Part shown: one piece after another, positions 10,998-62,700 of the stretch
Layout of the letters: each line of letters starts with the position of its first letter
Position numbering within the stretch: position 1 is the first letter of the stretch
DNA from: an uncultured Acidobacteriota bacterium
GTDB taxonomy: Bacteria; Acidobacteriota; UBA6911
Direction: 5' to 3'
Assembly (NCBI GenBank): GCA_963761825.1
Contig: CAVXIH010000010.1
Coordinates: 155,554 to 219,553 of the forward strand
DNA length: 64,000 bases
Notes under the pieces: generated by a model
Seen by the model: the letters and a program-made list of their open reading frames with translations, nothing else
Database searches by the model: none
Told to the model about the DNA's origin: nothing
Position numbers and translations under genes: made by a program

Positions 10998-13075
10998 TTA
11001 TGCTTGTCCTAGCTTTTTATTCGACTGGAGCACGTCTGCGACATGTTTCATGCCGAGATCTTCCAGCGTTTTTCTCTTGGGATAGCCTGTTTTGGAATCC
11101 CAGCCTTCAATCTGATAAAAGGCGGTCTTCCATTGTTCGACGCCCTTGTCATCAAGATACAGTTCCCGGCAGTCGACCCAGTCCCACTTGGAACCGTCGT
11201 AGACCGGCAGCGTGGTCCCGAAGTTGGCCATGGATGCGCCCCGTTTGTACATATACCCTGAAAACTTTTCGTTTTCCCGGGTCCTGCCCTGCATTACGAA
11301 GATAGCCCTCTTCAGATTCCAGGCTCTGCGCCCGATTTCGATGCCATCCAGAAAAGTTTGGTTTCTCCCTGTGACGGCGTTGAGGAAACGGGGCTCCGCT
11401 TCCGGTGTCGCTCCCTTTCCGTCGGGATTGGACGGGATTGAAATAGTTGCCCATCGCCCAATCGCAAAAGAGCGCCGATTCCTTATAGTATGTTGCATAA
11501 TGCTGGTGCCAGGCGACGAACTTGGCTTTGTGGTCGGAGTAGATGCCGGTTTTATACGCCTGCTCCCCCTGCCAGCTGTAATCGAACATGAAGGGATCGT
11601 CGCTGTAGGGAGGACTCGCGGAGGCCAGCAATTTGACATATTGCTCGCAGGACATCAGCTTGGTGGGGCCAAGCTGCATGTCATGGTTGTTGATGTCTCT
11701 GGAATCCATCAGGTTGCCATAGGCCCACTCCACCGTCGGCATAGTCCAGTGATCCATGTATCCCCATGCGGGCAAACGCAGGATGCTGTTCAGGTCGCTG
11801 ATTCTTCCGATTTTTTCGGCGAAGCGGACGATCCCGTCGGCGAGCAAATCTCCTATCCCGATGCGCTTGGCGATTGCCAGCGCAAATATTTCGGCAAATT
11901 CCACTTTTTCATACTGATCCATCGGCAGTGGATGGGTGTCTACCTTTTTCCCCGGACCGATGACGCCCATGTCATACAGTTTCTTGACATACCACCCGGC
12001 GCCGGTATTCGCCGGGCATATCGATCCTATTTCAGTGCCCGGCAGTGCCGGGAAACTTGCGGCTCCCATGAAGCAGAGGTCGGAAGCATTCAATCCGAGC
12101 TTCTGGACCGCATCGCTTGCTTTCCACATGTCCGATGTCGGCGTGCGTTTGTATGGAGGAGAAGGAAGACTATACCAAACCATTTCGGTGCAGCTGTCCG
12201 AATCCACGCCCTGAATCTGGCTCCTGCTGTGGCATCCGCGATTGCAGCCCATGCAGCAGGAAACTCCCGGCTTTATATCCCTGCCGGGGCCGCGCTGGCC
12301 GCTCATAGGGAATGTGGCCTCAAACCACTCCCGTGCTTCCAGCACTGCCTTGGGATTGGCTATCTTGATGCTGCCGGTGCCGACGACCGCGATGGCCTTC
12401 AGGTTTTTGGATCCGAAAACGCCGCCGAATCCTCCCTGGCCTGCGCCGGATCCTCCGGCATGAACGAGGGAGGCGATACGGGATTTGTTTTCACCGGCCG
12501 GGCCGATAGTCACGATGGCGGGGCGCTGCGTGGAATATTTGTTTCCCAGTTTCTGCCACTCGGAGCCATATCGGACGGGAGCCTTTGTGCTCTCCATCTT
12601 CCAGATTTCTTCCTGGGTTTCCCAAACGTTGAGTCCCCACAAGGGGCCGGCATCTTCAATCGTGACTATTGTCGTCAACGATATTGATATAGACGGGTGA
12701 TTCCGATTTTCCCTGGACTACCACACCATCCCATCCGGCAAGCTTGAGCGCGGGTGCGAAACTGCCGCCGAAATTGCTGTGGCCGAACCAATTGATCGGC
12801 CAGGTCTGCGCAGCCAGACCGGAGACGCTGGTTCTTCCTGCAAATGCGAGTCCCGTGCCGGCCAGCGGCCCCGTCATCAATGCCACAATGTTTCTCGGAT
12901 CAAAGGCATCTTGAAGGTCCCAGCCGCCCGGAGCTACGCAGAGGTCCCAGAAAAGGGCGGTTCCTGTTCCGTGCCCGCCGCCATAGGCTTCATATTTTGC
13001 TGAATCCAGAGCACTGATTTGTCTGGTTGTCAGATTGATAAGAAGTATCTTGCCTGCAAATCCCGGTGTTCCCAT
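10998..13075 (-). pseudogene. Aldehyde:ferredoxin oxidoreductase (tungsten AOR family, YdhV-like) split into three frames, with frameshifts near 12656-12680 and 11400-11435
   Basis: The N-terminus FAGKILLINLTT...YGGGHGTGT sits in ORF 12656..13075. The middle with CDWAMG is in 11152..12678. The C-terminus AWNLKRA...GWD..TG.P...LEDLG is in 10998..11639. Confidence 0.7.
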
Positions 13076-30691: not shown

Positions 30692-32460
30692 ATGGCAAAG
30701 CTTGATCCAACTAAACTTGCTGACTGGCAGATCGCATTTGAATGCGAAAAAGATATGAAGACAGTCCAGCAGCTTGCGGAAGGACTCGGAATCAAAGACA
30801 TGGAATTGATTCCCTATGGACATTATTATGGCAAGGTTGATTATCGAGCCATAATGGAGAGAGTAAAAGACAGACCGGACGGCAAATACATTGACGTTAC
30901 GGCGATCACCCCGACTCCTCTCGGGGAAGGCAAAAGCACTTCCACCATGGGCTTGGTTCAAGGCCTGGGAAAACGCGGAAAGAAAGTAACCGGCGCAATC
31001 CGTCAACCTTCCGGCGGACCGACCATGAACATCAAGGGAAGCGCGGCAGGTGGCGGCTTGGCGCAGTGCATTCCACTCACCCCGTTCTCACTTGGATTGA
31101 CCGGCGACATCAACGACATCATCAATGCGCACAACCTGGGAATGATCGCTCTCACTTCCAGAATGCAGCATGAATACATCAATGACGATGCCTTCCTGGC
31201 ATCCAAGAACCTGAAACGGCTGGATATCGATCACAGAAACGTTGAGATGAAGTGGGTTATCGATTTCTGCGCTCAAGCGCTCCGCAATATCACCATCGGC
31301 TATGGGCGGCAAGATGGATGGCTTCATGATGCAGTCCGGATTCGCCATTGCCGTAAGCTCCGAATTGATGGCGATTCTCGCTGTCGCCACCAGCCTCAAA
31401 GATATGCGTGAAAGAATCGGCAAAATGGTGGTTGCTTACAATAAAAAAGGCGATCCCGTCACGACAGCCGATCTTGAAGTGGATGGCGCCATGTGCGCAT
31501 GGATGGTCAATACTATCAATCCAAGCCTGCTGCAGACGATTGAAGGACAGCCCATTTTTGTTCACGCTGGACCGTTTGCCAATATCGCCATCGGTCAATC
31601 CTCCATCGTGGCGGATAAACTGGCCCTTAAGCTTGCGGATTATCACCTCACCGAAAGCGGATTCGGCGCCGACATCGGCTTCGAGAAATTCTGGAATCTC
31701 AAGTGCCGCTATTCCGGCCTGAAGCCGAATTGCGCCGTTGTGGTTGCCACTGTTCGCGCTCTCAAGAGCCATGGCGGCGGCCCCGCCGTTCCTCCGGGCA
31801 AAAAGCTGGATCCCGTTTACTCACAGGAAAACGTTGAGCTGGTGGAAAAAGGCTTGTGCAACCTTCTCAAACACATTGAGAACGTGAAGAAAGCCGGCAT
31901 CAACCCGGTCGTCTGCATCAACTCGTTCTACACGGACACAAAGGCCGAAATCGATTGCATCAAGAGAAACGTCGAAGCTATGGGCGCACGTTGCGCGGTT
32001 TCCGAACACTGGCTGAAGGGCGGCGACGGCGCGTTGGAGCTCTCCGATGCCGTCATTGATGCTTGCAACGAACCGAACAATTTCAAGTTCCTCTATGAAC
32101 TTGAAATGCCGCTCGGCAAGAGAATTGAAACTCATTGCCAAGGAAATCTATGGCGCAGATGGTGTAAGCTACACTCCGGCTGCCAAAGCCAAGCTCATCA
32201 AGATGGAAAAAGATCCTGAGCTTGCCAAACTCGGCACATGCATGGTCAAGACTCATCTCAGCCTTTCCCATGATCCCACCCTCAAAGGGGCACCCAAAGG
32301 CTGGACGTTGCCAATCCGCGACATCCTGACGTACAAGGGCGCGGGCTTTGTGGTTCCGGTTTCCGGGGATATCACCCTTATGCCGGGCACCGCATCGGAT
32401 CCTGCATACAGAAGAGTTGATGTAAATGTGGAAACCGGAAAAGTTACCGGTGTGTTCTAG
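30692..32460 (+). pseudogene. fhs: Formate--tetrahydrofolate ligase split over three frames, with frameshifts near 31290-31300 and 32125-32135
   Basis: [17 protein letters not shown]-loop in frame 1. GGKMDGF...[16 protein letters not shown] in frame 2. [11 protein letters not shown]...TGVF C-terminus in frame 3. Confidence 0.8.
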
Positions 32461-46329: not shown

Positions 46330-48392
46330 CTAGGGAATCGCGTTAGCCGCTTTAGTGAGTGCTCTCAGGGCGGGAGCGATTGCGATGAGCATTTCTGCGT
46401 GCGTTTTTTCCGCCCGCTCAAGCGTAAGCGCCGCTTTTCCCTTCCAGTCCTCGGGCGGTCTCTGGCGCGATTCGAGATAATCCAGAGCCCGCAATCCCGT
46501 CTCGATCGATTCGGAGAGAGTCTCCGTTAGAGGCTCGATCTCCTTGAGAAGAAACGATTGCCTGATAACCGGCTTCAAGTCGGCCGAGTTGTCTCTCCAG
46601 GCAGAGAGCAATTTGCGGATCTGCTGAAAATCCTCTGTCGATCCGGCTGGGTTCGCGACTGCCCGGCCCACGGCATCGCCAAACTTTCGGGCAATCTCAC
46701 TTTCCGGCAAAACCGCGTCCACCATCCGATTCAAAGGGGTAAGACTGGAGTATGTGCGGGTTTTTACGCGAACGCCGAGTCGGGCGGGCTTGAGCAGGTC
46801 GGCGAGCATTTTCAGCGATGCGATGTTTTCGACTCCTGACATGCGCTGCAGCATCTTCATGGGGTTGGCCCGATGCATCAGGCCCAATGCATCCAGTTCT
46901 CCATTTACGAAATCGAGACGCCGGTACATGTCCTGTACGTCGCTGATTTCCCGGGGAGACCAGAGTCTTTCCGCAATCGCGGCCGTTCTCGGCCAGATCC
47001 TGGACTCGATGTTGTCAGAATTGACAAGTTCGCTCCACATGCAGGCTTCCCCTCCGAGAACCAGCGACTTTTCCTGGTCTGCCAGGCTTGCGGCCTCTTT
47101 GCCCAGGGGGTCGTTGTCATAGTGAAAAGAGGCGGGCTGCATTTGATCCAGATAGTAGCTATAGGATAGAACTCCGGCATAGCCCTGGCGTACGCTTTTT
47201 GCCAGATAGGAATGCCCTCGCCATGACTGAACTACCACGGTTTTGGGTAGGTCCGGATGGAGGATCTCATCCCAACCGATCATTTTTTTGCGGTGCTTCT
47301 CAAGAATTTGCTGCAGGCGCTGATTGAAATAGGCCTGTAACGCCGCATTATCCGGCAGCTTCTTTTGCACTTTGAAGGCCTGGATGCGCGAACTGGCGTT
47401 CCATTGCCTGCCGTTAACTTCATCGCCTCCAATGTGAAAATATTCGTCGGGGAAAAGTCCGGCCATCTCATCTATGAAGGAATTCAGAAAGTCATAGAGT
47501 TTCTTGGAGGTGGGATCCATGCAGGGATCAAAGACTCCCCAGGCGCGCTCGATGGAGTAGGGTCCGGGAGCGCTTGCCAGTTCGGGGTAGGCTGCAAGCC
47601 ACGCCGTCGTGTGGCCCGGCATGTCAAATTCCGGAATGATCCGGATGCCACGGTCGCGTGCGTAGTCAATGATTTCACGCACTTCCTGCTGGGTGTAATA
47701 GTTGCCCTCCGATGCGGCCAGCTGAAGTTTTGGAAATCGCCTGGACTCCACGCGAAATCCCTGGTCGTCAGACAGATGCCAGTGCAGGACATTCATCTTC
47801 ACTGCGGCCATGGCATCCAGATTCCGTTTGATGACTTCCGCCGGTTCCCAGTGGCGGGAGACGTCGATGAGCAATCCTCTCCAGCAAAAACGAGGCTCAT
47901 CTTTGATTTGCACGGCGGGGACAAAGAAGGATTTGTCATCGGTGCGTATCAGCTGCAGAAAGGTCTCCAGTCCGCGCAGGATGCCGATCGGAGACGGTGC
48001 TACCAGCCGGGCGCTTTGCTCTGTTACGTCCAGCGTGTAGGATTCATCGGCCCGAAGCGATTGGACCGGCTCTCCCGCTCCCGCACAGTGTATTTCGAGG
48101 GTTGCCTTGTTTCGAATCCGCGGAGGAGGCCATGGATAGCGGGATGCCGGTTTTCCTTTGAAGACGCTAGCAGCAATCGGCCTGTGGCTGCCGACACGCG
48201 CGGGTCTCCGTGTCCAGTCAGGATTACATCAAATGTGCTATCGATGGATAAGCGGCCCTGAGTCTGAACAAGGCTCTTCGGCATGGGCATCAGGTGCAGA
48301 GCCGGTTGCACCGGTTCTCCGATCCCGATTGCATAACTTGAAATCAAACCCGCAATGATCAAAGCGGCAGTGCGATGAATTCTGATCGGCAT
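46330..48392 (-). pseudogene. Secreted GH20 beta-N-acetylhexosaminidase (dispersin-B-like), with a frameshift between about 48030 and 48140
   Basis: HWHLSDDQGFR and HIGGDEV catalytic motifs. The GH20b N-domain with GILRGLETFLQL and the signal peptide lie in a different frame (ORF 48024..48392). Confidence 0.7.
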
Positions 48393-51874: not shown

Positions 51875-53646
51875 GGTCTGCGTATAGTTATTTCCTCGGC
51901 ATTCCAGATAAGATGCGGGACCAGTATCGATGGATGCACGTTATCCAGCTTGTTGCTCCATCCGGCCAGGATGTTGGGCGCGATGACAGGGATTGCCGGC
52001 ATTTGCCTGGCCCAGATTTCCTGCGCCTGATCAAAACTTGCTTTCCGCTCGGTATCTCCCGTGCTGCTGACAAGCTTTGAGATCAGCATGTCTATCGTCG
52101 CTTCCCACGCCCGCTCCGGCTTTTCCTGATTCGGTTGCCAGAAATGAATGTTCCCGCTGCTATACCAGAGGTTGGTCTGCAGATCCGGCGCAACATCCGT
52201 GGGCGTGAAACCGAACAGAATCGCTTCATACTCGAAGGTGCCAAGAAAACGGGAAGCGATTTCGTTGGGCAGGAGATGCTGTATTCCTGCCCGGATCCCC
52301 ACTTTTGCGAGGTTGTCCTGAATAACCTGGACCGCCTTTTCGCGTATATTGTTGCCGCGCGAAGTGACCAGGCTCAACTCCAGAGGGCGCCGTTTTTCGC
52401 CATACTCCAAAACTCCATCCTGATTTATATCTTTCAGCCCGCACTGTGCCAACAATTCCCGGGCGCGTGCGGGATTGAATTCGGTCTTTGAAATCCCGGT
52501 ATAATACCATTGAGAATTTCCGGAACTCACCGGTCCATATTGAGGCGATCCGAGACCGAGAAGGATGGACCGAGTCATCCCATTCCGGTCGAGGGCATAG
52601 GAAACGGCTCGGCGGAATTCCGATTTTTCAAAGAGTGCGAGCTTTTCCGGATCGACGTACGGTTTTCCCAGTCTGTTTACTCCGCGGTTGAGATTGAACC
52701 ATAGATAATCCATCGTCAATCCCGGACCCAGGTCGCGCAGGACATAATTCTGCTGCGTGCGGCGAAGCATGGCATAGTTTTCAGGGCTGAGAGACGGCGA
52801 ACTCATCAGGTCGAGTTCGCCTTGCCGGAACCGGAGCGCTTCGGAATTAAAATCCGGAATGATCAGCAGCGTGATAGTGTCCAGATAAGGGAGCGTGATT
52901 CCCGCGCGATCCTTTTTCCAGTAATAAGGATTCCGCTCCAGGACAATCTTAATGCCCCGCTGATATTCTTTTAGTCGAAATGGCCCGAGCCCCGCAACAT
53001 CCTGCGGATTCACTGTGGGTCCCCAGGCTGTTGAGAACCGGCCCTCCTGGTAGACCTTGAGCAGCCGCCTTTTCGGAAGAATAGGCACAGAATCGAGCAT
53101 CCTCAGTCCCATGCCAACGGTTCGCTTAAACGTCAACCGCACTGTGAAGTCATCGATCTTCGTGAGGGATGGGAATGCGCCGTCAGTTTCTATCTGCCCG
53201 GCCAGCGGACAAGCGATTTTGGGATCCGTCAGCGTCTGAAATGAAAACAGGACATCATCCGCAGTGAAGGGCGTGTTGTCTGAAAATCGCACGCCGCGTC
53301 GCAGATGGATTGTGAAACTCCGGCCGGCTTTGTCCGTTTCCCATCGTGTGGCTAGGGCCGGTTCAAGCTGCAAAGTGCTTCGGTTGATGTGCACAAGGTC
53401 CGCAGACAGCCTGTCTGTGATGAGCGTATTAGCCAGTCCCGAAGCCAGCATGCGATTGAAACTGGATGGATCCGAACTCACTGCCAGAACGATATTCCCC
53501 CCGCGCACGCCGGTCAGGTTTTGGGCTCGAAGAAAATCGGTGCGATCAGGCTCCTGTGCAAGAAACGGAGTACAGAGGGGAATCGCCAGAATCAGACAGA
53601 GCAGAAAATATCCGCGCGACAGCTTTGGCATGTTTGGCAGTTTCAT
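51871..53646 (-). CDS. ABC transporter substrate-binding protein, family 5 (peptide/nickel). Start taken at MKLPNMPKL.
   Basis: Signal peptide followed by an SBP_bac_5-like sequence. The first 69 aa of the ORF are probably not translated. Confidence 0.75.
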   Translation of the reverse strand: MKLPNMPKLSRGYFLLCLILAIPLCTPFLAQEPDRTDFLRAQNLTGVRGGNIVLAVSSDPSSFNRMLASGLANTLITDRLSADLVHINRSTLQLEPALATRWETDKAGRSFTIHLRRGVRFSDNTPFTADDVLFSFQTLTDPKIACPLAGQIETDGAFPSLTKIDDFTVRLTFKRTVGMGLRMLDSVPILPKRRLLKVYQEGRFSTAWGPTVNPQDVAGLGPFRLKEYQRGIKIVLERNPYYWKKDRAGITLPYLDTITLLIIPDFNSEALRFRQGELDLMSSPSLSPENYAMLRRTQQNYVLRDLGPGLTMDYLWFNLNRGVNRLGKPYVDPEKLALFEKSEFRRAVSYALDRNGMTRSILLGLGSPQYGPVSSGNSQWYYTGISKTEFNPARARELLAQCGLKDINQDGVLEYGEKRRPLELSLVTSRGNNIREKAVQVIQDNLAKVGIRAGIQHLLPNEIASRFLGTFEYEAILFGFTPTDVAPDLQTNLWYSSGNIHFWQPNQEKPERAWEATIDMLISKLVSSTGDTERKASFDQAQEIWARQMPAIPVIAPNILAGWSNKLDNVHPSILVPHLIWNAEEITIRRP

Positions 53647-53916
53647 TGAATTTGACCGGACTGTCAAGAAATTCACAGCTAAAGAAGTTGTGTATTGAGC
53701 AGGCCTTTCCCTATAATGAGCAAATATCGGAGATCCCTCTCTCTTCGAATATCCCCTCAGAGCGGGGGCATGGGACTGAGTGTCGCCAGTCGGGACGCAT
53801 CCACAGCAGTAGCCTTCTGAAGAATGCGGCCTTGGCAGCGGCATTGAGCTCATAGTGCCCGTATAGACTTGGCTGTGTTTTGATGGGGATCTATCTGTTT
53901 ATTCAGGGGAGTCGCT

Positions 53917-56900
53917 ATGAGCAAAGAACAAAGACAACTCAGCGCAGGCCTGGTTGTGGGTAACCGTTATAGGGTGGAACGGCATTTAAGCGCCAGCAGT
54001 ATGGGATCCGCATACTTCTGCACGGATCTCCTGGGAGGAGAGACCGAGGTCGTATTAAGGATTTTGAGTCTCGGTGCATCTATTTCAGAACAGGCTAAAG
54101 AGTGCAGTCGCGAGTTCTCGATCCTGCGCCGTCTAAACCATCCGAACCTGGTACGTATTGCGGATTTTGGCGTAGTGGAGAATTCGGGTGATTTGTTCCT
54201 GGTACGGGATTGGATTCATGGCCGAAACCTTTTCGCAGCGACCGAGGGGATGGATGCCGATGCCATACTGAATATAGCCATGGATCTATCGAGAGCGCTT
54301 CAATACCTGCATGCGCGGGGCATAGTTCATGGGCATTTGAGTCCTTTCAACGCCATCCTTTCAAACGAAGGGGAAGGAATCGGAAAGCTCAGATTAGTGG
54401 ATTTTGGTTTGGGCCGCAGGATTGGGAATGGGCAACTGGACCGCAGCATCGGAACGTTGGCCTATACGGCTCCGGAGATTCTGTTGGGAGGACATGTAAA
54501 CGGGCGCTCGGACTTATACTCCCTTGGAATCTTGCTGTATCAGCTGTTGACACGGCGGCTTCCGTTTGAGGATGCGGATCCCGAATTCTTAATACAGAAG
54601 CATTTGCAGAGCAGCGTGGATCTGCGCCCGATAGAGCGGATGCGAGGCGGGAACCGTGTGTCCCCGCTGGTACAGAGCCTGCTCGATAAGGACCCGGATA
54701 AAAGACCCGCATCCGGGGAAGACGTGATCCGGCTGATTATCGACGCTTCGGGGAGAAACTGGTTGAATGCCGACATCAAAGAATTGGAGAGCCATTTCTG
54801 CGCCTCCCAATTTGTCGGCCGCGAAAAAGAGCTGTTGCATCTGCAGGAATCAGCGAGGCGAGTGAGGGAAAACGGGCGTGGCTGGACTGTCTTTATAACC
54901 GGCGAAGCGGGATCGGGAAAAACCAGATGCATGGAAGAGCTGAAAAGCTGGGCACTCCTGGAGGGTTGGCAAATTGCGGAGGGCACGTGCGGGTCCCGCG
55001 AGGCCGGATCGTATGCGCCGTATCGCCAGATCCTGGCCAATAGCGATCCCGCGGAGGGAGAGGCGCTGTTCCACTTTCAAGATGCTCCTCGCGCGGCGGC
55101 GCCGGAAATATTTGATGCTTCTTCCGAGTACGCAACCGGCCAGTACCGCGATCTGCTAACCAGAGAACTGATACGGCGCATGAAGGCACGCCCGACACTG
55201 CTTTTGTTGCATGATTTCCATCTTGCAGATGAGGCCACCAGCACGGTCCTCGACTATTTGAGCTCCGATATTCAGGCGTCACTCCGTGTTGATGTGCGTC
55301 AGTCTTCGTTCCGGAGATGAGATTAAGGGAATCATGGGAAGAGTCATCGATTCGGCGACCCGGCAGGAGCGAGGGGAAGTGCTTCCGCTGGATCCCCTCG
55401 AAAAGGAAAGCGTGGAACAGCTGATTGAGGGAATGACGGGTGACAGCAGCCTGAAAGCGACGCTCGGAGAATGGATCTTTAAGAGTATCGGCGGGAATCC
55501 ATTTTTCCTCGAAGAGATGCTGAAGCACCTGGTCGAACAGAAACTCCTGTGCCGCGAATTCGGTAGATGGAGATTTGCCGAATCGGATCTGAAGAAGCTG
55601 GAAGTGCCTGAAAGCGTTGGTGCGGTCCTGCTGAGGCGTTTTGAACAATTGTCTCCTCCGGCCAGAGCGTTGGCTAACTGGCTGGCTTTGTTTCAAGGCG
55701 ATGTTTCCGAGATCGCTCCTGAACTCGGTGATGGCACAAAGTCCTGCTCTTACAACCGATGCCTTGCAGGAGCTGAGCCATCGCCAGATGACACGTACAG
55801 AAACGAAAAGAACCGAGGAGACAGTAGGATTCGTCCATTCCCTTATTGCAGAGGTGATCCAGAGCAACCTGCCCAAAAAGCTGCGCCAGAAAATGCACCG
55901 CAAAATAGCCGAAGTGCTTGAGCGGGAAATGGGAGCGGAAGGCAATGTGCAGGAACTGGCCATGCATTATATGGAGGGGAATGCGGGGGACGTTGCCGTT
56001 CGATATGCCTGGAACGCTGCGGTCCAGGCGCGCGCGGAATTCGCGCACGAGAGAGCATTGCATTGCTACGAGTATGTCTTTAAAAACAGAAACGGCTTGA
56101 CCAACGGGCAGATCTGCGCGGCGGCAATCGAGGCCAGCGATACGATGTTCGCCCTGGGACTGCCGAAACGGTCCATCCGTCTTTTGAAGATAGAAATATC
56201 CAGAGGCAAAACCGTGAGCGCCGAGCTTAAAGCGCGCATGTATATGCAGCTGGCATTGTCGTATCAGCACCTTGGCGATCTGCATAGGCAGGAAACGTGC
56301 TGCAAGAAAGGACTGAGCTTCTTTCGAAACCGGCCGGCCGGGGAAATCAATATGACCAAAGCGATGCTTTGGGCTGAAATGGCTTTTGCCGCCATCCTGC
56401 AGTCGCATTCCCGTCGAGGCTTACTCTTTTTGGACAAAGCGCGCAAATCCTGCCCTGCTGAAAATGCGGCTGCATTGGAAGGGCGCATAGAGAGTCTTGC
56501 CGCCTCCATGCACCGCATCGCCTGCAATTTGCGCAAAGCTCGGTCCGCAAGCGAAAAGGCAGCATCAATCCTTTCCCATTCTGAGGAATCCTATTTAGCC
56601 TGCTCTGCGTATTCTACCTTGGGAGGCGTTTTGGCAGGGATTGGTAGATTTCCCCTTGCGCTGAAAAAACATGCGCAGGCAGTTTCCTTGAGTGATAAAA
56701 GCCGTTCGGTAGTGCTCAGGTCTCAGACCTTGGGAAATCTCGCCGAATGCCTGTGCCGGATGGGACGTACGCAGGAGGCGGTGAATACTGCCGAACGTGC
56801 GGTCAAATCCGTATGCGACGCCAACAGCCCCGCAATCAGTTACGCATTCAACGCTATTCTGGCTGAAACCAGACTCGCTGCCGGCAACTATCGCGGTGCC

Positions 56901-59366
56901 TGCGAGGTTGTCGAAAAACTGGATCGCAACGCCAAACACAACCAGGCGATTTATACCGTGGGACATGTGCTCTATGTGGCAGCCAGCCTGAATTTTGTGT
57001 TGGGCAAATTCGATGCGGCGCTGGAGCATATCGGCAAACTATGCGCCATGGAAAACCGTGAAACCCCTTTCTACGAACGCGAGTTGGCAGAAGCTCTAAG
57101 AGCGCGAATCCTTTTCGAGCACGGGAATACTTCGAAAGCTCTGGCCAGTTTGTATGCGCTGGATAGGGAGGTGACGGAGAAACACTGGCCCTATCAGATG
57201 TGTGTCATAAAGCTGTACATAGGCGACATGCTGGTAAGGCAGCGGAAGCTGGATAAGGCGGAGCGATATGTCAGAAATGCACTCAGATTGGCGAAAGCCA
57301 TGCAGGCCGTTTCCCTGATAGCGTATAGCCATTTTCTGCTGGGACTGATCTATGCGCAACTGCATCGTTCGGGAGGTGGGATGGGCTGCAGCGATGGGAA
57401 AGGAGATCTTGGGCCTGCCGAGCCCTTCCGGGCTAGAGCGATTGAAGAGCTTCGAGAGGCCTGCCGGATAGCAGAATCTTCGTATCATGCCGAAACTGTA
57501 TGGAGAGCGCATGCTGAATTAAGCCGGATCCTGAGGTCCATGCCGGCTGCAGGCAATTACCTGGAGCATGCGAAAAAAGCCTACGAGCTTTTGTGTAAAG
57601 CTGAAGATCAAGTGCCCTCGGAAATGCTGCCGGCTTATTGCAGCGCCTTCGACCGGAGCCGGATAAAGGAAGAATTAGCCCGCCTGATCGAATCGGGCAG
57701 AGATCAGGAAAGCGGTGCCGGAGTTGCTGTCGCCGAAGTACGCGATGAAGAAAAAGCCCGGATATTGCTGCGCGTGAGCGCGACGGTGAGCACTATCGGG
57801 GAACCGGGGCCTTTACTGGAAGCGATTCTCGATCAACTGGTCCAAGCGGTGAAAGTTGAACGGGCCTTTATATTTTTAAGGGATGAACTGACTGGAAGCC
57901 TGCAGTTGGCCAAAGGAAGAAACGACAGGCAGGAGTCCCTGACGGGAGAGAACAATTTGGACCGGAGCATTCTGGTAGATGTATTGAAAAACGGGAAGCC
58001 GATCGTAAGTGCCAACGCACACGAGGATCCGCGCTTCAGAGACAAAGATCGCGCGGCCTCCCATAAGACTGGAAAGCTCCTGTGCGCCCCGCTGAAGCTG
58101 TCGGACCGGATTCTTGGAGTGCTTTATGCGGACCACTCCTCTCCGGCGGGAGGCTTAAGCGACTCGACCGTCAGCCTCTTCGCTGCCTTCTGCAACATTG
58201 CGGCAATGGCGATTGACAGCGCTCTGGCGCATCAGCGACTGGTGCAAGAAAAAACCGAGCTGGAAAAATACCTGCACCAGGCGAGGGGGGAGGAGTATGC
58301 GGAGATCGTCGGGCGCTGCGCATCCGTTGAGTTGCTGCGAGACCGGATAGGCCTTGCCGCCGCTTCTCCCGCGGATATCCTGATCACCGGGGAGAGCGGA
58401 ACGGGCAAAGAACTGGTTGCCCGGGCCATTCATCGAACCGGACGGCGGAAGAATGGAAAATTTGTAGCCGTCGATTGCGGTTCTCTTTCCGATACTCTTG
58501 CCGAAGCCGAGCTCTTCGGTTTCCGTAAAGGGGCGTTTACGGGCGCCGCGGAAAACCGGCAAGGGCTGTTGGAGGCAGCCCACGGAGGAATCCTTTTCCT
58601 GGATGAATTGTCCAATCTTCCTTTTCACATACAGGCCAAATTTCTGCGGGTTCTCCAGGAGCGTGAGGTGCGGCGATTGGGTGAAACCATCCCTCGGAAG
58701 ATCGATATTCAAGTCATCGCCGCGACCAACAAGGATCTTCTGGAGGAGATGAGAAATGAAAAGTTTCGGATGGATCTCTATTACAGGCTGAAGGAAATTG
58801 AAATCCGGGTGCCTCCGCTGCGGGAGCGTTCGGGGGACATCCCCCTTCTGATCGAATGGTTTTTAAGTCAATTGGCAGACCGGGAAGGGGGGCGGTCCAA
58901 GCGATTTTTGTCCGAAGCGCTGGAATTGCTCAAAGGATATTCCTACCCGGGAAACATCAGGGAGTTGAGAAATATCGTTGTCAGTTCCTACTATTCGACG
59001 GCCAAAACAAGTCTCGGGATTGACGATCTGCCGCCCGAAGTCCGCCGCGGGAAGGCCGTGCCGGTCGGCCCGGAATTGATTGCCGCAGCTGGTATATACC
59101 GTGAAATTCTTGAAGGAAGAGGCAATTTTGAGAGCCTGGTGCAGGAGCCTTTTTTGCAGCACCAATTTGGTTCATCGTTTGTCCGGGCCATAATCCAAAG
59201 GGCCCTGGAAGACTCCGGCGGCATATACTTGCAGGCGTTTTTGTTGCTGCGCATTCCCGAAAGCCGCTACTCCGTGACCATGCAATTCCTGAAGCGCAAC
59301 AACTGCTACCTCGACTTCCGTCCCTTCAGGCGCAATCGCGGGAAGAACGAGGATCCCAGTCCATAG
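53917..59366 (+). pseudogene. Giant multidomain regulator: Ser/Thr (pseudo)kinase - STAND/AAA NTPase - TPR - GAF - sigma-54 activator AAA+ - Fis-type HTH. Split by frameshifts near 55290-55300 and 55725-55735.
   Basis: Kinase-like domain with HGHLSP and VDFG. P-loop TGEAGSGKT. Sigma54 motifs GESGTGKE and GAFTGA. C-terminal HTH. Pieces are ORFs 53917..55320, 55286..55921 and 55641..59366. Confidence 0.65.
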
Positions 59367-59407
59367 TTCGGATTGTTTCAGGGTATAGCAATCCCTGTGT
59401 CGCGGGA

Positions 59408-61276
59408 TCAGGATCGGGGCGGGAATCCAATTACATTGCTGTCCAGGGATGCGGTTTCTTCGGCACGCGCTTCGACGCTTTTCTGGGCCGAACGGAGAAG
59501 AGCAAAGATATTGATGCCATCCCGGGGGTAGGAGGCCATGCCAATCTGGCAATCGATAGTATAATTTTGGCCTCCGATGGTTGAGGCGTGGCTTTGAATC
59601 TGCTGCCTGAGGCGCTGAGCGCAATGAAGCGCCTGTTCGTCGCGTATGCCGGGCAAAAACGCAACGAAACTCTGGTGCCCGAATCGAACCACGATATCGG
59701 TCTCTCGCAGCTCCAGTTTGATATCATCCGCTATCTTTTTTATGGCCGCATGCCCAATTTCTGTTCCATAGAGACGGGTAATTTGGCTCAAGTTGCTGAT
59801 TTCAAAGAAGATCAGAGAAGCCGGAGACCTGTTTATTTCGGCGAGAGAGATCAACTGCGGGCTGATTGCCGTCAGATAGGACATGCGGTGCATCCGCGTG
59901 GTCGGGTCCAGGATTTTTTCGGCTGCCGGGGCTTCCTGTTTTTTTGAATCGGAAATGATCGGCGCAAGAAATCCGGCCAATGCCTGGAGGATTTCCAGTT
60001 CGTTTCGGGTGTATGTGGAGGGTGCCTGCGTATAGAGGGAAATGGTCCCCAAGGATTCATTGTCGTGGGTGATGGGGACGACCAGCGTATCTTTGAATAT
60101 GGAAAAATCGCCTTCGATATCCTGAAAATCGAGGGCCGGCCCGGTATTGATCATCGGCCGCCCGTGAGCGTATACCCAGCCGCTGATCCCTTTTCCGACG
60201 CTCATGATGTGGTCCTGAATTTTCTCGGCGAAAATGCCGCCTGCATGTACGGCGCGCAGACTGTCATTGCCTTCAAGCAAATAGAAAGCGCAGGTATCGA
60301 ATGGCACGATTTTCTTCATCCGGGAGGCGAATATAGGGAGTAGATCTTTCAGATCAAGATGTCCTGCAATGGTGCTGCAGAATTCGGCAAGCAGGATAAG
60401 CTCTGCCGGCATATCCATGGTATTCGAGGGAACTGAAGCCGAAACATCGGCAGCCGACAGGGCCTGGTTGACCGTTTCGAAATATTTCCGGAAAGACGGT
60501 TCCGGGGAGTTTTCCGCTTCTTTGACGGCAGCTTGCTCTATTTCTTCAATGTGATCGGCGAACAGTTTTACCACTTCCGGATCGTAAAAGATTCCGGATT
60601 GGGCCAGCAAAAGCTCGCGCGCTTCTTCTGTCTGGATAGCGAGTTTGTAGGGCCGGGAGAAACGAATGGCATCGAAAGCATCGGCAACCGCGAGGATTCT
60701 GGATGCCAGGGGTATTTCCTCGCCTTTCAGGCCGTCAGGGTAGCCATTCCCATCCCATCGTTCGTGGTGGTGGCGGACATATTTTGCGGCTGGATAAGGG
60801 AAGTGGACATGCTGCAGGATCTCGTCTCCCGCAGCGGCATGCACTTTAATTTTTTCAAATTCCTCCTTTGAAAGCCGCCCGGGTTTATTGAGGATGTAGT
60901 CGTCTATCGCCAGTTTGCCGATATCATGGAGCAGAGCGGCTGTCTTTATCGCTTTTAACTCATTCGGATCTTTGATGTTGCAAAGCTCTGCCATCCGAGT
61001 TGCATAAATCTTCACTCTGCGGATATGGCCATACGTTGTCTGGTCTTTGGCATCAACCGCCAAGGCAAGGGATTCCACGGTTCGCATATACAGCTGCTCC
61101 TGTTCTTCCAAATGCTTTTCGGCTTCCGTTACTCGGGTTTTAATAACTTGATTCCATCCCCATAGCCAACTCCAATTAGTGGTGCAACTACGAGAGGGAT
61201 GCACCATGTGATCTGAAGAATTCATGAAGTCGACTAATGATAATAGCAGAAACTGAGGCTGAAATGGAATAATCAA
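59408..61276 (-). CDS. HD-GYP phosphodiesterase - GAF - degenerate GGDEF protein. The start is uncertain.
   Basis: HHERWDGNGYP HD-GYP motif. The GGDEF-like C-terminus reads RFGHQSF instead of GG(D/E)EF. Confidence 0.7.
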   Translation of the reverse strand: MIIPFQPQFLLLSLVDFMNSSDHMVHPSRSCTTNWSWLWGWNQVIKTRVTEAEKHLEEQEQLYMRTVESLALAVDAKDQTTYGHIRRVKIYATRMAELCNIKDPNELKAIKTAALLHDIGKLAIDDYILNKPGRLSKEEFEKIKVHAAAGDEILQHVHFPYPAAKYVRHHHERWDGNGYPDGLKGEEIPLASRILAVADAFDAIRFSRPYKLAIQTEEARELLLAQSGIFYDPEVVKLFADHIEEIEQAAVKEAENSPEPSFRKYFETVNQALSAADVSASVPSNTMDMPAELILLAEFCSTIAGHLDLKDLLPIFASRMKKIVPFDTCAFYLLEGNDSLRAVHAGGIFAEKIQDHIMSVGKGISGWVYAHGRPMINTGPALDFQDIEGDFSIFKDTLVVPITHDNESLGTISLYTQAPSTYTRNELEILQALAGFLAPIISDSKKQEAPAAEKILDPTTRMHRMSYLTAISPQLISLAEINRSPASLIFFEISNLSQITRLYGTEIGHAAIKKIADDIKLELRETDIVVRFGHQSFVAFLPGIRDEQALHCAQRLRQQIQSHASTIGGQNYTIDCQIGMASYPRDGINIFALLRSAQKSVEARAEETASLDSNVIGFPPRS

Positions 61277-61279
61277 TTA

Positions 61280-62700
61280 GCCAAGGGGAAGACATGATCT
61301 TCACCCAAAACTTAAGAATACTTTCTCCATGTTGACCAAGCAATTGCAATTGAGGTCAGCAATGGAGTTTGGAAAGAAAGTAAGTGACAACTACAGCCAC
61401 CGCAGGGAGCAAAATATCCTGCAATTCATTGCTTCCATGATTCATCAAGCTGATAGATCGAGCTGTATAAGAAAGCGCAGCATGTTGTGCTTGCCGTGTT
61501 AAAAACAACTCTATATATGTGAATTTTGGGACGTTGCGCAAAGATCGGAGATTGAGACTAAATATAAAGAAATGTTGCCATGATGCATGGAGCGATGCCA
61601 TACATCATGGCAATTGCCATGATATATGCATCTCCAATTGTGATCGTAGCGTTGAAAGATGGTAAAAAGAGGAAGAATGGTAGAGTTGTAATAGAGCGAG
61701 GAGTGCTAAGCAGGAGCCAGCCATTGTCAAAGGATGAGTAGCTAATTCCCATCCAGCCCATAAAACAATGGGAAATGCAAGGCATGCCACCGTTACTACA
61801 TACACTTTAAGCTTAAATGGCAAATCGCCCCAATTCATAACACGCTACCACATCTTAGATCCATGTTATGTATCGGCAGCATGCCTTTGAAATTGTTAGC
61901 ACAGAATTGCATACTATCCAACCGAGCTGGATTATACGCTCATTGAGTAGGGTAATCAAACACTATGCCCCAATACTTTTAATCTGTGTTTATTAGCAGG
62001 ATGCAAATCAATTATCTGCCGGAAATCCTCGATCTATGTCCAGATGATGGCTGGATTTTCACGGGGTTCAAGGATTTCGATTTCAGTCTGCATGTCAATC
62101 TCCAATTTAAGCTGTTCTGTTAATCATGGATGAACTCTTGCGAGTCCAGTTCATAACCAAAGAATCGCGCTTGCCATAAGGTGTTCCTCCTATTCAAATG
62201 GCCTGCAACGACGCAGTGCTTTTGGCAAAGCAATGCATTCGCATACGATGCAAATGCAACCAGAACCATTGCCAGCACACCATCGAGCCATAACTAGAAA
62301 GCAATGGCCCGACAACATGCCGGAACGGCAAATTGCTTAATGCAGCCTCAGCGTTGTGCTCTGCTCAGATTGGAGTCTGTGTCTGAATCTTTTTGCCGCT
62401 AGGGCTCAAAACTCAAACACTCATCAAGGTGAGTGAGCTATTCGAGAATGCTGATGCTACTGCCTGGGGTTCACACCTGAACCATGCAAAAACCGAAGAT
62501 CCAAATGAATCCCCGACGTGCTCCTCCCAAGCTACTTCTTGATATATCGAACCCTAGCAAACCCCTCAAGTTCTTGTCAACAAAAATCTTACTTCCTCTA
62601 AATTTGGGCGAATCTCTATTTTCCGCAGGATTAAGCCGCGCCGGCAGAAAATTGTGTGCGTATTTGGAGGTGTAACTTAAGATGATTTGGCTTTCGGATT
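61280..62700. other. AT-rich ORF-poor island of about 1.4 kb, with three alternating near-palindromic 15-17-mers (tgccatgatgcatgg / tgccatacatcatggca / tgccatgatatatgca) at 61575-61630
   Basis: Lower GC than the flanks. No ORF over 80 aa apart from three frame-hopping hydrophobic minus-strand fragments. Confidence 0.5.

Follow-up and report, generated by a model that had tools for sequence, protein, structure and literature searches.

In bacterial enhancer-binding proteins, the activators of sigma-54-dependent transcription, the usual switch is a receiver, GAF, PAS or V4R domain, and the sigma-54 AAA+ module needs oligomerisation to act. Among the STAND regulators, MalT of Escherichia coli has an output domain of the LuxR type, and PknK of Mycobacterium tuberculosis is not known to have a GAF or sigma-54 module. 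MalT and PknK are paradigms for STAND proteins, which can carry effector domains at either end and which pass through a signal-driven ADP/ATP switch to multimerisation; PknK is a serine-threonine kinase, and the output of MalT is a DNA-binding effector domain (PMC4381067). Pseudokinases are also known from bacteria, with 11 of the 99 serine/threonine protein kinases of M. xanthus reported as such (PMC6791715). Here we describe a regulator locus at 53917-59366 (+) of a 64,000-nucleotide stretch of DNA from an uncultured Acidobacteriota bacterium (GenBank assembly GCA_963761825.1, contig CAVXIH010000010.1, positions 155,554 to 219,553; hereafter the window), in which kinase, STAND and sigma-54 modules meet in a single protein. 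Taken as a whole, our analyses make it likely that the locus encodes an intact, single sigma-54 activator with artefactual frame breaks, a pseudokinase head and STAND-driven control.

Like PknK, the encoded protein opens with a Ser/Thr-kinase fold and continues with an AAA_16 nucleotide-binding oligomerisation domain (NOD) and a MalT-like TPR sensor, but it differs from both MalT and PknK in its catalytically degenerate kinase and its sigma-54 AAA+ output. Its second half resembles activators of the NifA, FhlA and NorR type, in which a GAF domain directly precedes a Sigma54_activat domain with GAFTGA, intact Walker A and B motifs and a lid; the protein from the window differs from these by about 1280 extra N-terminal residues (pseudokinase, STAND and TPR) and by having no Pfam-detectable HTH_8, the Fis-type helix-turn-helix (HTH). 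No NCBIfam equivalog was found for it, and the best model, NifA (TIGR01817, residues 1283-1688), gives 317.7 bits, far under its cut-off of 528.85, which separates it from NifA proper. Like the Hanks-type pseudokinases of bacteria, its kinase fold is without at least one required catalytic residue; unlike them, it shares one polypeptide with a STAND NTPase and a sigma-54 activator. Finally, residues 396-715 of the STAND segment match positions 605-912 of the TOMM system kinase/cyclase fusion model (TIGR03903), at 167 bits against a cut-off of 706 and with neither a cyclase domain nor a TOMM context.

One regulator gene in three reading frames

In the assembled sequence the locus consists of three long open reading frames (ORFs) in frames 1, 2 and 0 (53917-55320, 55286-55921 and 55641-59366), the first of which matches Pkinase and AAA_16, the second no Pfam model, and the third TPR, GAF, Sigma54_activat and AAA_lid_14. 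As a base-by-base reference we used L003, a public contig (ENA ERZ25039502) with 94.4% identity to the window over 17.7 kb. Deletion of the two bases that are surplus relative to this contig, G55278 and A55710, yields a single ORF with zero internal stops (Table 1), which starts at an ATG with GGAG 8 nt 5' of it and ends with the stop codon at 59364-59366. A scan of species-representative genomes recovered 31 loci from Acidobacteriota metagenome-assembled genomes (MAGs), in 13 of which the regulator is one unbroken ORF (1787-1809 aa in twelve, 1667 aa in one), and all 13 keep the GE[ST]GTGKE Walker A motif and GAFTGA. A more distant copy at 74% identity, L004 (GCA_035506515.1), which comes from an assembly with k141-style contig names of the Illumina type, is unbroken for 1395 aa up to the contig end. 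The locus is thus one real gene for a large multi-sensor sigma-54 transcription activator, and judging from the sequences searched, its family appears so far only in Acidobacteriota MAGs.

The preliminary description of this DNA, made from the letters alone, had proposed one hybrid regulator of about 1800 aa whose frame is broken twice, near 55295 and 55730. Both proposals hold, with the breaks now placed at 55278 and 55710 by alignment to L003. It had also allowed for the opposite, that the segments belong to separate genes with their own starts and stops, which would here mean three cooperating genes for a kinase/STAND protein, a linker protein and a TPR-GAF-sigma-54 activator. Public gene calls do deliver such pieces, for example P0121 (1157 aa, 100% identical) and fragments with kinase and AAA_16 domains that are 456-797 aa long. 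These short public proteins are, however, contig-end truncations or products of frameshifted assemblies; in the window, the junctions between ORFs fall exactly on the single-base indels relative to L003, for the middle ORF there is neither a separate start nor any domain, and the uninterrupted ORFs of the 13 loci, twelve of them of 1787-1809 aa, leave us with almost no credence in separate genes. This alternative fails in the comparison with relatives, and therefore the single-gene reading stands.

Table 1. Coordinates of the regulator, its predicted domains and motifs, and its convergent neighbour in the window
Feature	Residues	Position	Strand	Basis
Complete regulator gene		53917..59366	+	1815 aa after removal of bases 55278 and 55710
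First frame break		55278..55278	+	One surplus G relative to L003, GGC[G]TCACT
Second frame break		55710..55710	+	One surplus A relative to L003, TTCCG[A]GATC
Pkinase	21-265	53977..54711	+	123.8 bits, cut-off 31.7
AAA_16, STAND P-loop NTPase core	298-458	54808..55291	+	77.8 bits, cut-off 32.6
STAND Walker A, GEAGSGKT		54901-54924	+	Motif
STAND Walker B, LLLLHDFH		55198-55221	+	Motif
Helical-repeat TPR, MalT-like, presumed sensor	~700-1260	56016..57698	+	Pfam TPR_12, TPR_MalT
GAF	1299-1432	57813..58214	+	55.2 bits
Sigma-54 AAA+ domain and lid	1464-1712	58308..59054	+	Sigma54_activat and AAA_lid_14
Sigma-54 Walker A, GESGTGKE	1491-1498	58389-58412	+	Motif
GAFTGA sigma-54 contact loop	1538-1543	58530-58547	+	Motif
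Sigma-54 Walker B, ILFLDEL	1558-1564	58590-58610	+	Motif
Predicted family-specific C-terminal five-helix domain	1715-1815	59061..59363	+	AlphaFold2, hidden Markov model comparison
Putative diverged Fis-type HTH in tail		59178-59297	+	Profile-profile comparison
Conserved end, CYLDFRPFRR		59304-59333	+	Tail conservation
Convergent neighbour, multi-transmembrane, HD-GYP, GAF and GGDEF		59408..61838	-	Pfam HD_5/HD, GAF, GGDEF; context, not shown to be part of the system

Sequence comparison indicates that both frame breaks are almost certainly single-base insertion errors in the assembly and that the real gene is intact in the organism, because the extra bases are absent from L003, intact orthologues exist at 13 loci, selection on the gene resembles that on its neighbours and other genes in the window are frameshifted too. 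When the window is compared with L003, the ratio of non-synonymous to synonymous substitution rates (dN/dS; Nei-Gojobori) over the whole regulator, calculated with the codons at 56618-56643 excluded, is 0.154; four neighbouring genes give 0.10-0.17. By domain the ratio for the regulator amounts to 0.21 for the kinase, 0.06 for STAND, 0.14 for TPR, 0.18 for GAF and 0.19 each for the AAA+ domain and the tail, and it remains low downstream of both breaks. At least three further genes in the window are frameshifted, namely those for formate-tetrahydrofolate ligase (30692-32460, +) and aldehyde:ferredoxin oxidoreductase (10998-13075, -) and the HD-GYP gene next to the regulator. The first two each appear as three overlapping ORFs that cover consecutive parts of the Pfam model; each therefore carries at least two frameshifts, which points to an error-prone source assembly, probably of the long-read type. 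In line with this, related ENA 'contig_N' assemblies and 'MFD' MAGs are visibly fragmented, at varying positions. Programmed frameshifting was rejected, as the breaks are missing from the close relative L003 and from every intact orthologue.

The alternative is that two real 1-bp insertions have recently inactivated the regulator in this strain. Both breaks do stand in the assembled sequence, neither lies in a homopolymer run, and L003, which is without the two insertions of the window, has its own copy split by two other single-base indels further downstream, whereas the adjacent 4 kb of ABC-transporter genes show none between the two assemblies. A genuine pseudogene would, however, be hard to reconcile with a dN/dS value far from ~1 and indistinguishable from those of intact neighbours even beyond the breaks, or with lesions that are private single bases shared by no relative. 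Moreover, core metabolic genes and the HD-GYP gene are broken in a similar manner in the same window, and related assemblies of this type are heavily fragmented. We therefore regard decay as quite unlikely and favour an assembly error: where the preliminary description had left open whether the protein is non-functional or the assembly wrong, it is the second possibility that survives.

Two further observations concern the quality of individual stretches. At 56618-56643, inside the TPR region, the window differs from L003 by four compensating single-base indels (+1, -1, -1, +1), which reflect either a locally divergent stretch or more small errors in one of the two assemblies. The GH20 hexosaminidase ORF (46330-47913, -; 527 aa) shows Pfam the catalytic domain alone, and its orthologues in L003 and L004 have 621-731 aa and an additional N-terminal Glyco_hydro_20b domain; the ORF in the window probably contains another frameshift or a mis-set start.

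Domain order and the kinase-like head

Domains were called with Pfam at curated cut-offs on the repaired 1815-aa protein, and motifs were read directly from the sequence. The predicted order is a pseudokinase, a STAND NTPase, a MalT-like TPR region, a GAF domain, a sigma-54 AAA+ domain with its lid and a diverged Fis-type C-terminal domain, so that the STAND, TPR, GAF and sigma-54 AAA+ modules recognised by eye in the preliminary description are all present. In the STAND core, G329-T336, D433 and D438 are invariant or nearly so in an alignment of 17 homologues. Within the TPR region, TPR_12 scores 44.6 bits, above its cut-off of 30.1, and TPR_MalT (residues 857-1133, 56487-57317) reaches 38.6 bits, under its cut-off of 45. 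The sigma-54 module gives the strongest signal, with 219.1 bits for Sigma54_activat (PF00158, residues 1464-1629; cut-off 20.2) and 70.5 bits for AAA_lid_14 (residues 1635-1712), and Foldseek matches this region to the lids of NtrC1, FleQ, ZraR and LuxO.

The kinase-like head has a VVLRIL motif (54049-54066), in which the beta3 Lys is replaced by Arg, and HGHLSPFN (54328-54351), in which HRD has become HGH. Because the Lys is changed to Arg and the catalytic Asp to His, the head should not be able to phosphorylate in the canonical way, and the pseudokinase assignment made previously is upheld. It extends, moreover, to the whole clade. The VxxR and HGHL(S/N)PFN motifs are common to the window protein and its closest relatives, and across 44 orthologues, a group with some redundancy between its P and L entries, the catalytic Asp is kept in 12 and the beta3 Lys in 27, with all four of Lys, Asp, Asn and DFG-Asp present only in P0140, P0146, L010, L017 and L019 (5/44). 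Members without the catalytic Asp have N, H, R, S, A, T or C in its place, and those without the Lys mostly have Arg. These positions were assigned by alignment to a PknB kinase-domain sequence, which served as a position ruler only. The C-lobe, on the other hand, is nearly invariant in the family alignment, for example in RRLPFEDEDPGFLIQKHLQG. We conclude from these patterns that the head is a predicted pseudokinase, degenerate across the clade and apparently kept for a non-catalytic role.

It is conceivable that the domain is instead a non-canonical enzyme, with Arg in place of Lys and His as base, or a nucleotide-binding switch that acts through auto- or partner-phosphorylation. The window protein retains DFG (54397-54411), APE and the Asn of the catalytic loop, its dN/dS of 0.21 relative to L003 shows purifying selection on this domain, and the few orthologues with the full catalytic set would fit this idea as well. 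Against it, the Asp position, the Lys, the alpha-C Glu, the DFG Asp and the Gly-rich loop vary freely across orthologues, which speaks for relaxed constraint on catalysis rather than for an alternative mechanism, and we consider an active head unlikely.

Distant long relatives of the same architecture present a different picture. They are mostly non-RD 'HGD' kinases in which the catalytic Asp and the beta3 Lys are each kept in 45 of 45 and all four residues in 44 of 45. Uncharacterised proteins of the P0166, P0175 and P0183 type share the kinase-STAND-TPR-GAF-sigma-54 order and a similar size with the window protein, but differ from it in the retained Lys, Asp, Asn and DFG Asp (44/45) and in a canonical HTH_8, and are 27-38% identical to it in the GAF/AAA+ region.

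The combination of a kinase and STAND front with a sigma-54 output had been thought rare; this view cannot be maintained. We ran an exhaustive HMMER search of 1.84 billion cluster representatives (50% identity) with the TPR-GAF-AAA+ part as query and counted among the best 150 hits. These include 14 orthologue-level clusters that also have the kinase, 13 of them of 1739-1826 aa and one N-terminally cut at 1566 aa, and about 52 further clusters of about 1330-2180 aa that have a kinase at the N-terminus and a sigma-54 AAA+ domain in the C-terminal part. In most of the latter a STAND segment is detectable, and in nearly all a GAF domain precedes the AAA+ domain. Altogether, about 65 of these 150 hits have the architecture. 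Orthologues with the same fusion are at hand both in the 14 clusters and in the 13 intact MAG loci. Such proteins are named 'sigma 54-interacting transcriptional regulator' (NCBI) or 'Nif-specific regulatory protein' (JGI), and full-text literature searches turned up no account of a sigma-54 activator joined to a kinase or pseudokinase. On this evidence from databases and literature, the fusion appears uncharacterised and not rare.

The C-terminal domain and the genomic surroundings

A complete sigma-54 activator with a Fis HTH had been proposed for the C-terminal half. The AAA+ part of this proposal stands, with GESGTGKE and GAFTGA in place, but a canonical Fis HTH does not: Pfam detects HTH_8 neither in the window protein, at E<=10, nor in any of 33 family tails, nine of which show sub-threshold similarity to DUF3369. 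The protein ends instead in a tail of about 100 aa that is well conserved across the family and that AlphaFold2, run on an alignment of 33 sequences, folds into five helices (predicted local distance difference test 91 in both models; predicted template-modelling score 0.80 for the tail-only model). When lid and tail are submitted together, the Foldseek alignment runs through the DNA-binding regions of NtrX and ZraR. By sequence, the tail matches no solved structure, and a word-indexed homologue search with the tail alone as query found three fragments only. A profile-profile comparison with hhalign, in which the C-termini of 41 distant relatives, mostly of the HTH_8 type, served as counterpart, reaches a score of 36.4 at 88% probability, compared with a maximum of 14.3 over 30 column shuffles and 13.0 with the reversed alignment, and it places VRxVIxxALxxxxGxYRxAFxLLxIP on the first two helices of a Fis-type HTH. 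Canonical HTH_8 is present in the distant members P0166, P0175 and P0183. We interpret the tail as a diverged Fis-type HTH whose recognition helix is altered and which carries the conserved CYLDFRPFRR extension, that is, as the putative DNA-binding end of the protein.

The locus is collinear across MAGs, in the order GH20, Nfu, HU, a divergent SBP_bac_5/permease transporter, the regulator and a convergent HD-GYP gene, followed by an RND membrane-fusion gene where the sequence reaches that far; the transporter genes are missing from some loci. Wherever a related locus extends far enough downstream, the HD-GYP gene adjoins the regulator. Since collinearity holds for the entire region, however, this adjacency is by itself no argument for a functional link. 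Intact HD-GYP orthologues have 796-815 aa with an N-terminal multi-transmembrane part, which in the window is spread over frames -1, -2 and -3 and leaves an ORF of 622 aa. The GGDEF domain of this protein looks degenerate, because the GG[DE]EF position reads FGHQSF by eye.

Upstream of the regulator ATG lies a stretch of about 200 nt (~53690-53916, +) that is conserved in L003, in L004 and, in part, in L002. Within it are CCCTATAATG and ATCGGAGATCCCTCTCTCTTCGAATATCCCCTCAGAGCGGGGGC, the latter with a possible CCCC/GGGG hairpin. One contig titled 'Nitrospirota bacterium', L006 (CAVVOB010000022.1), carries a locus collinear with those of the Acidobacteriota MAGs and a regulator with 77% identity, which suggests that it is mislabelled or mis-binned.

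The surroundings also bear on whether the regulator might be an anti-phage STAND protein (Avs-like) or another conflict-system NTPase. STAND NTPases and kinases are common in defence systems, and PADLOC reports domain-level matches of the kinase to PD-T4-6/mad6 and of the AAA+ domain to RtcR-type models. These matches reflect generic similarity of the kinase and AAA+ domains, and no full-length PADLOC defence-protein match was obtained. The C-terminal half is, moreover, a full sigma-54 activator module, and across divergent MAGs the locus keeps its collinear place among housekeeping genes (Nfu, HU, GH20, ABC transporter) and lies in no variable island. A role in defence is in our view very improbable, and a transcription activator remains the reading we favour.

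The -24/-12 promoters suspected nearby in the preliminary description did not materialise. The consensus TGGCAC-N5-TTGCW with up to two mismatches has 47 matches in the window against 35.7 expected, which is no enrichment, and the best intergenic-looking site (61704-61719, -) was rejected as not conserved in L003. When GG/GC was required and at most one mismatch allowed, 470 kb of related loci yielded five sites, with zero at a conserved position. A 20-bp perfect palindrome conserved in about 8 loci, ATCATGGCAATTGCCATGAT (61604-61623), was considered as an operator upstream of the HD-GYP gene and rejected: it falls within the codons for ...GDAYIMAIAMMYG... in the N-terminal membrane part of the HD-GYP protein, encodes the peptide ...YIMAIAMMYG... 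and is therefore palindromic coding sequence rather than an operator. The region around it (61575-61628) holds three copies of TTGCCATGAT(G/A)(C/T)ATG, among them the palindrome and a third copy at 61575-61590. Simple scans of 53550-53950 and 59300-59480 for sigma-70 promoters and terminators found nothing, and neither did Rfam and tRNA scans of the window.

A proposed mode of action and its meaning

By analogy with MalT and PknK, a signal on the TPR region, the GAF domain or both would convert the STAND module from its closed state with ADP into an open state with ATP, which would in turn drive multimerisation. This could allow or de-repress assembly of the C-terminal AAA+ ring, whose GAFTGA loops would then remodel sigma-54 RNA polymerase at target promoters. 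As in NifA and NorR, the GAF domain probably provides a further input or brakes the protein intramolecularly, and the most likely role of the pseudokinase is that of a non-catalytic module for regulation or docking.

Several points weigh against this picture. The coupling between STAND oligomerisation and the AAA+ ring is purely our inference, and the sigma-54 dependence of the regulator is a prediction from domain homology: neither the surroundings of the gene in the window nor 36 related loci revealed a convincing sigma-54 promoter or enhancer. The tail on its own has no match in the PDB by Foldseek, and its hhalign alignment covers helices 1-2 only and ends before the recognition helix. For the integrity of the gene, the two frame-breaking indels of the L003 orthologue itself and the position of the inserted bases outside homopolymers likewise count on the other side.

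Distant relatives of the same architecture keep an active-looking kinase together with HTH_8, and we therefore propose that loss of catalysis accompanied remodelling of the DNA-binding end in the clade of the window protein. More speculatively, and with clear doubt, one Acidobacteriota lineage may have turned the kinase into a non-catalytic allosteric or docking module while the Fis HTH became a new five-helix putative DNA-binding domain, so that two oligomerising ATPases, the STAND NOD and the AAA+ ring, would be coupled in one pseudokinase-gated activator. If true, such pseudokinase-gated, dual-ATPase control of sigma-54 would be a mode without experimental description.

The practical impact of these findings is modest, since databases already list these proteins under a generic name and the organism is uncultured. 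A lesson of wider use is that a frame break in a long-read MAG should first be checked against relatives and neighbouring genes and only then be given a biological reading. The regulator itself is an undescribed variant of a known regulator type and of moderate interest. Its family sets a STAND nucleotide switch and a kinase fold ahead of the AAA+ ring and could show how two oligomerising ATPases are coupled within one protein. Members with an active kinase and members with a pseudokinase in the same architecture offer a natural comparison, which could reveal how bacteria reuse a dead kinase domain.

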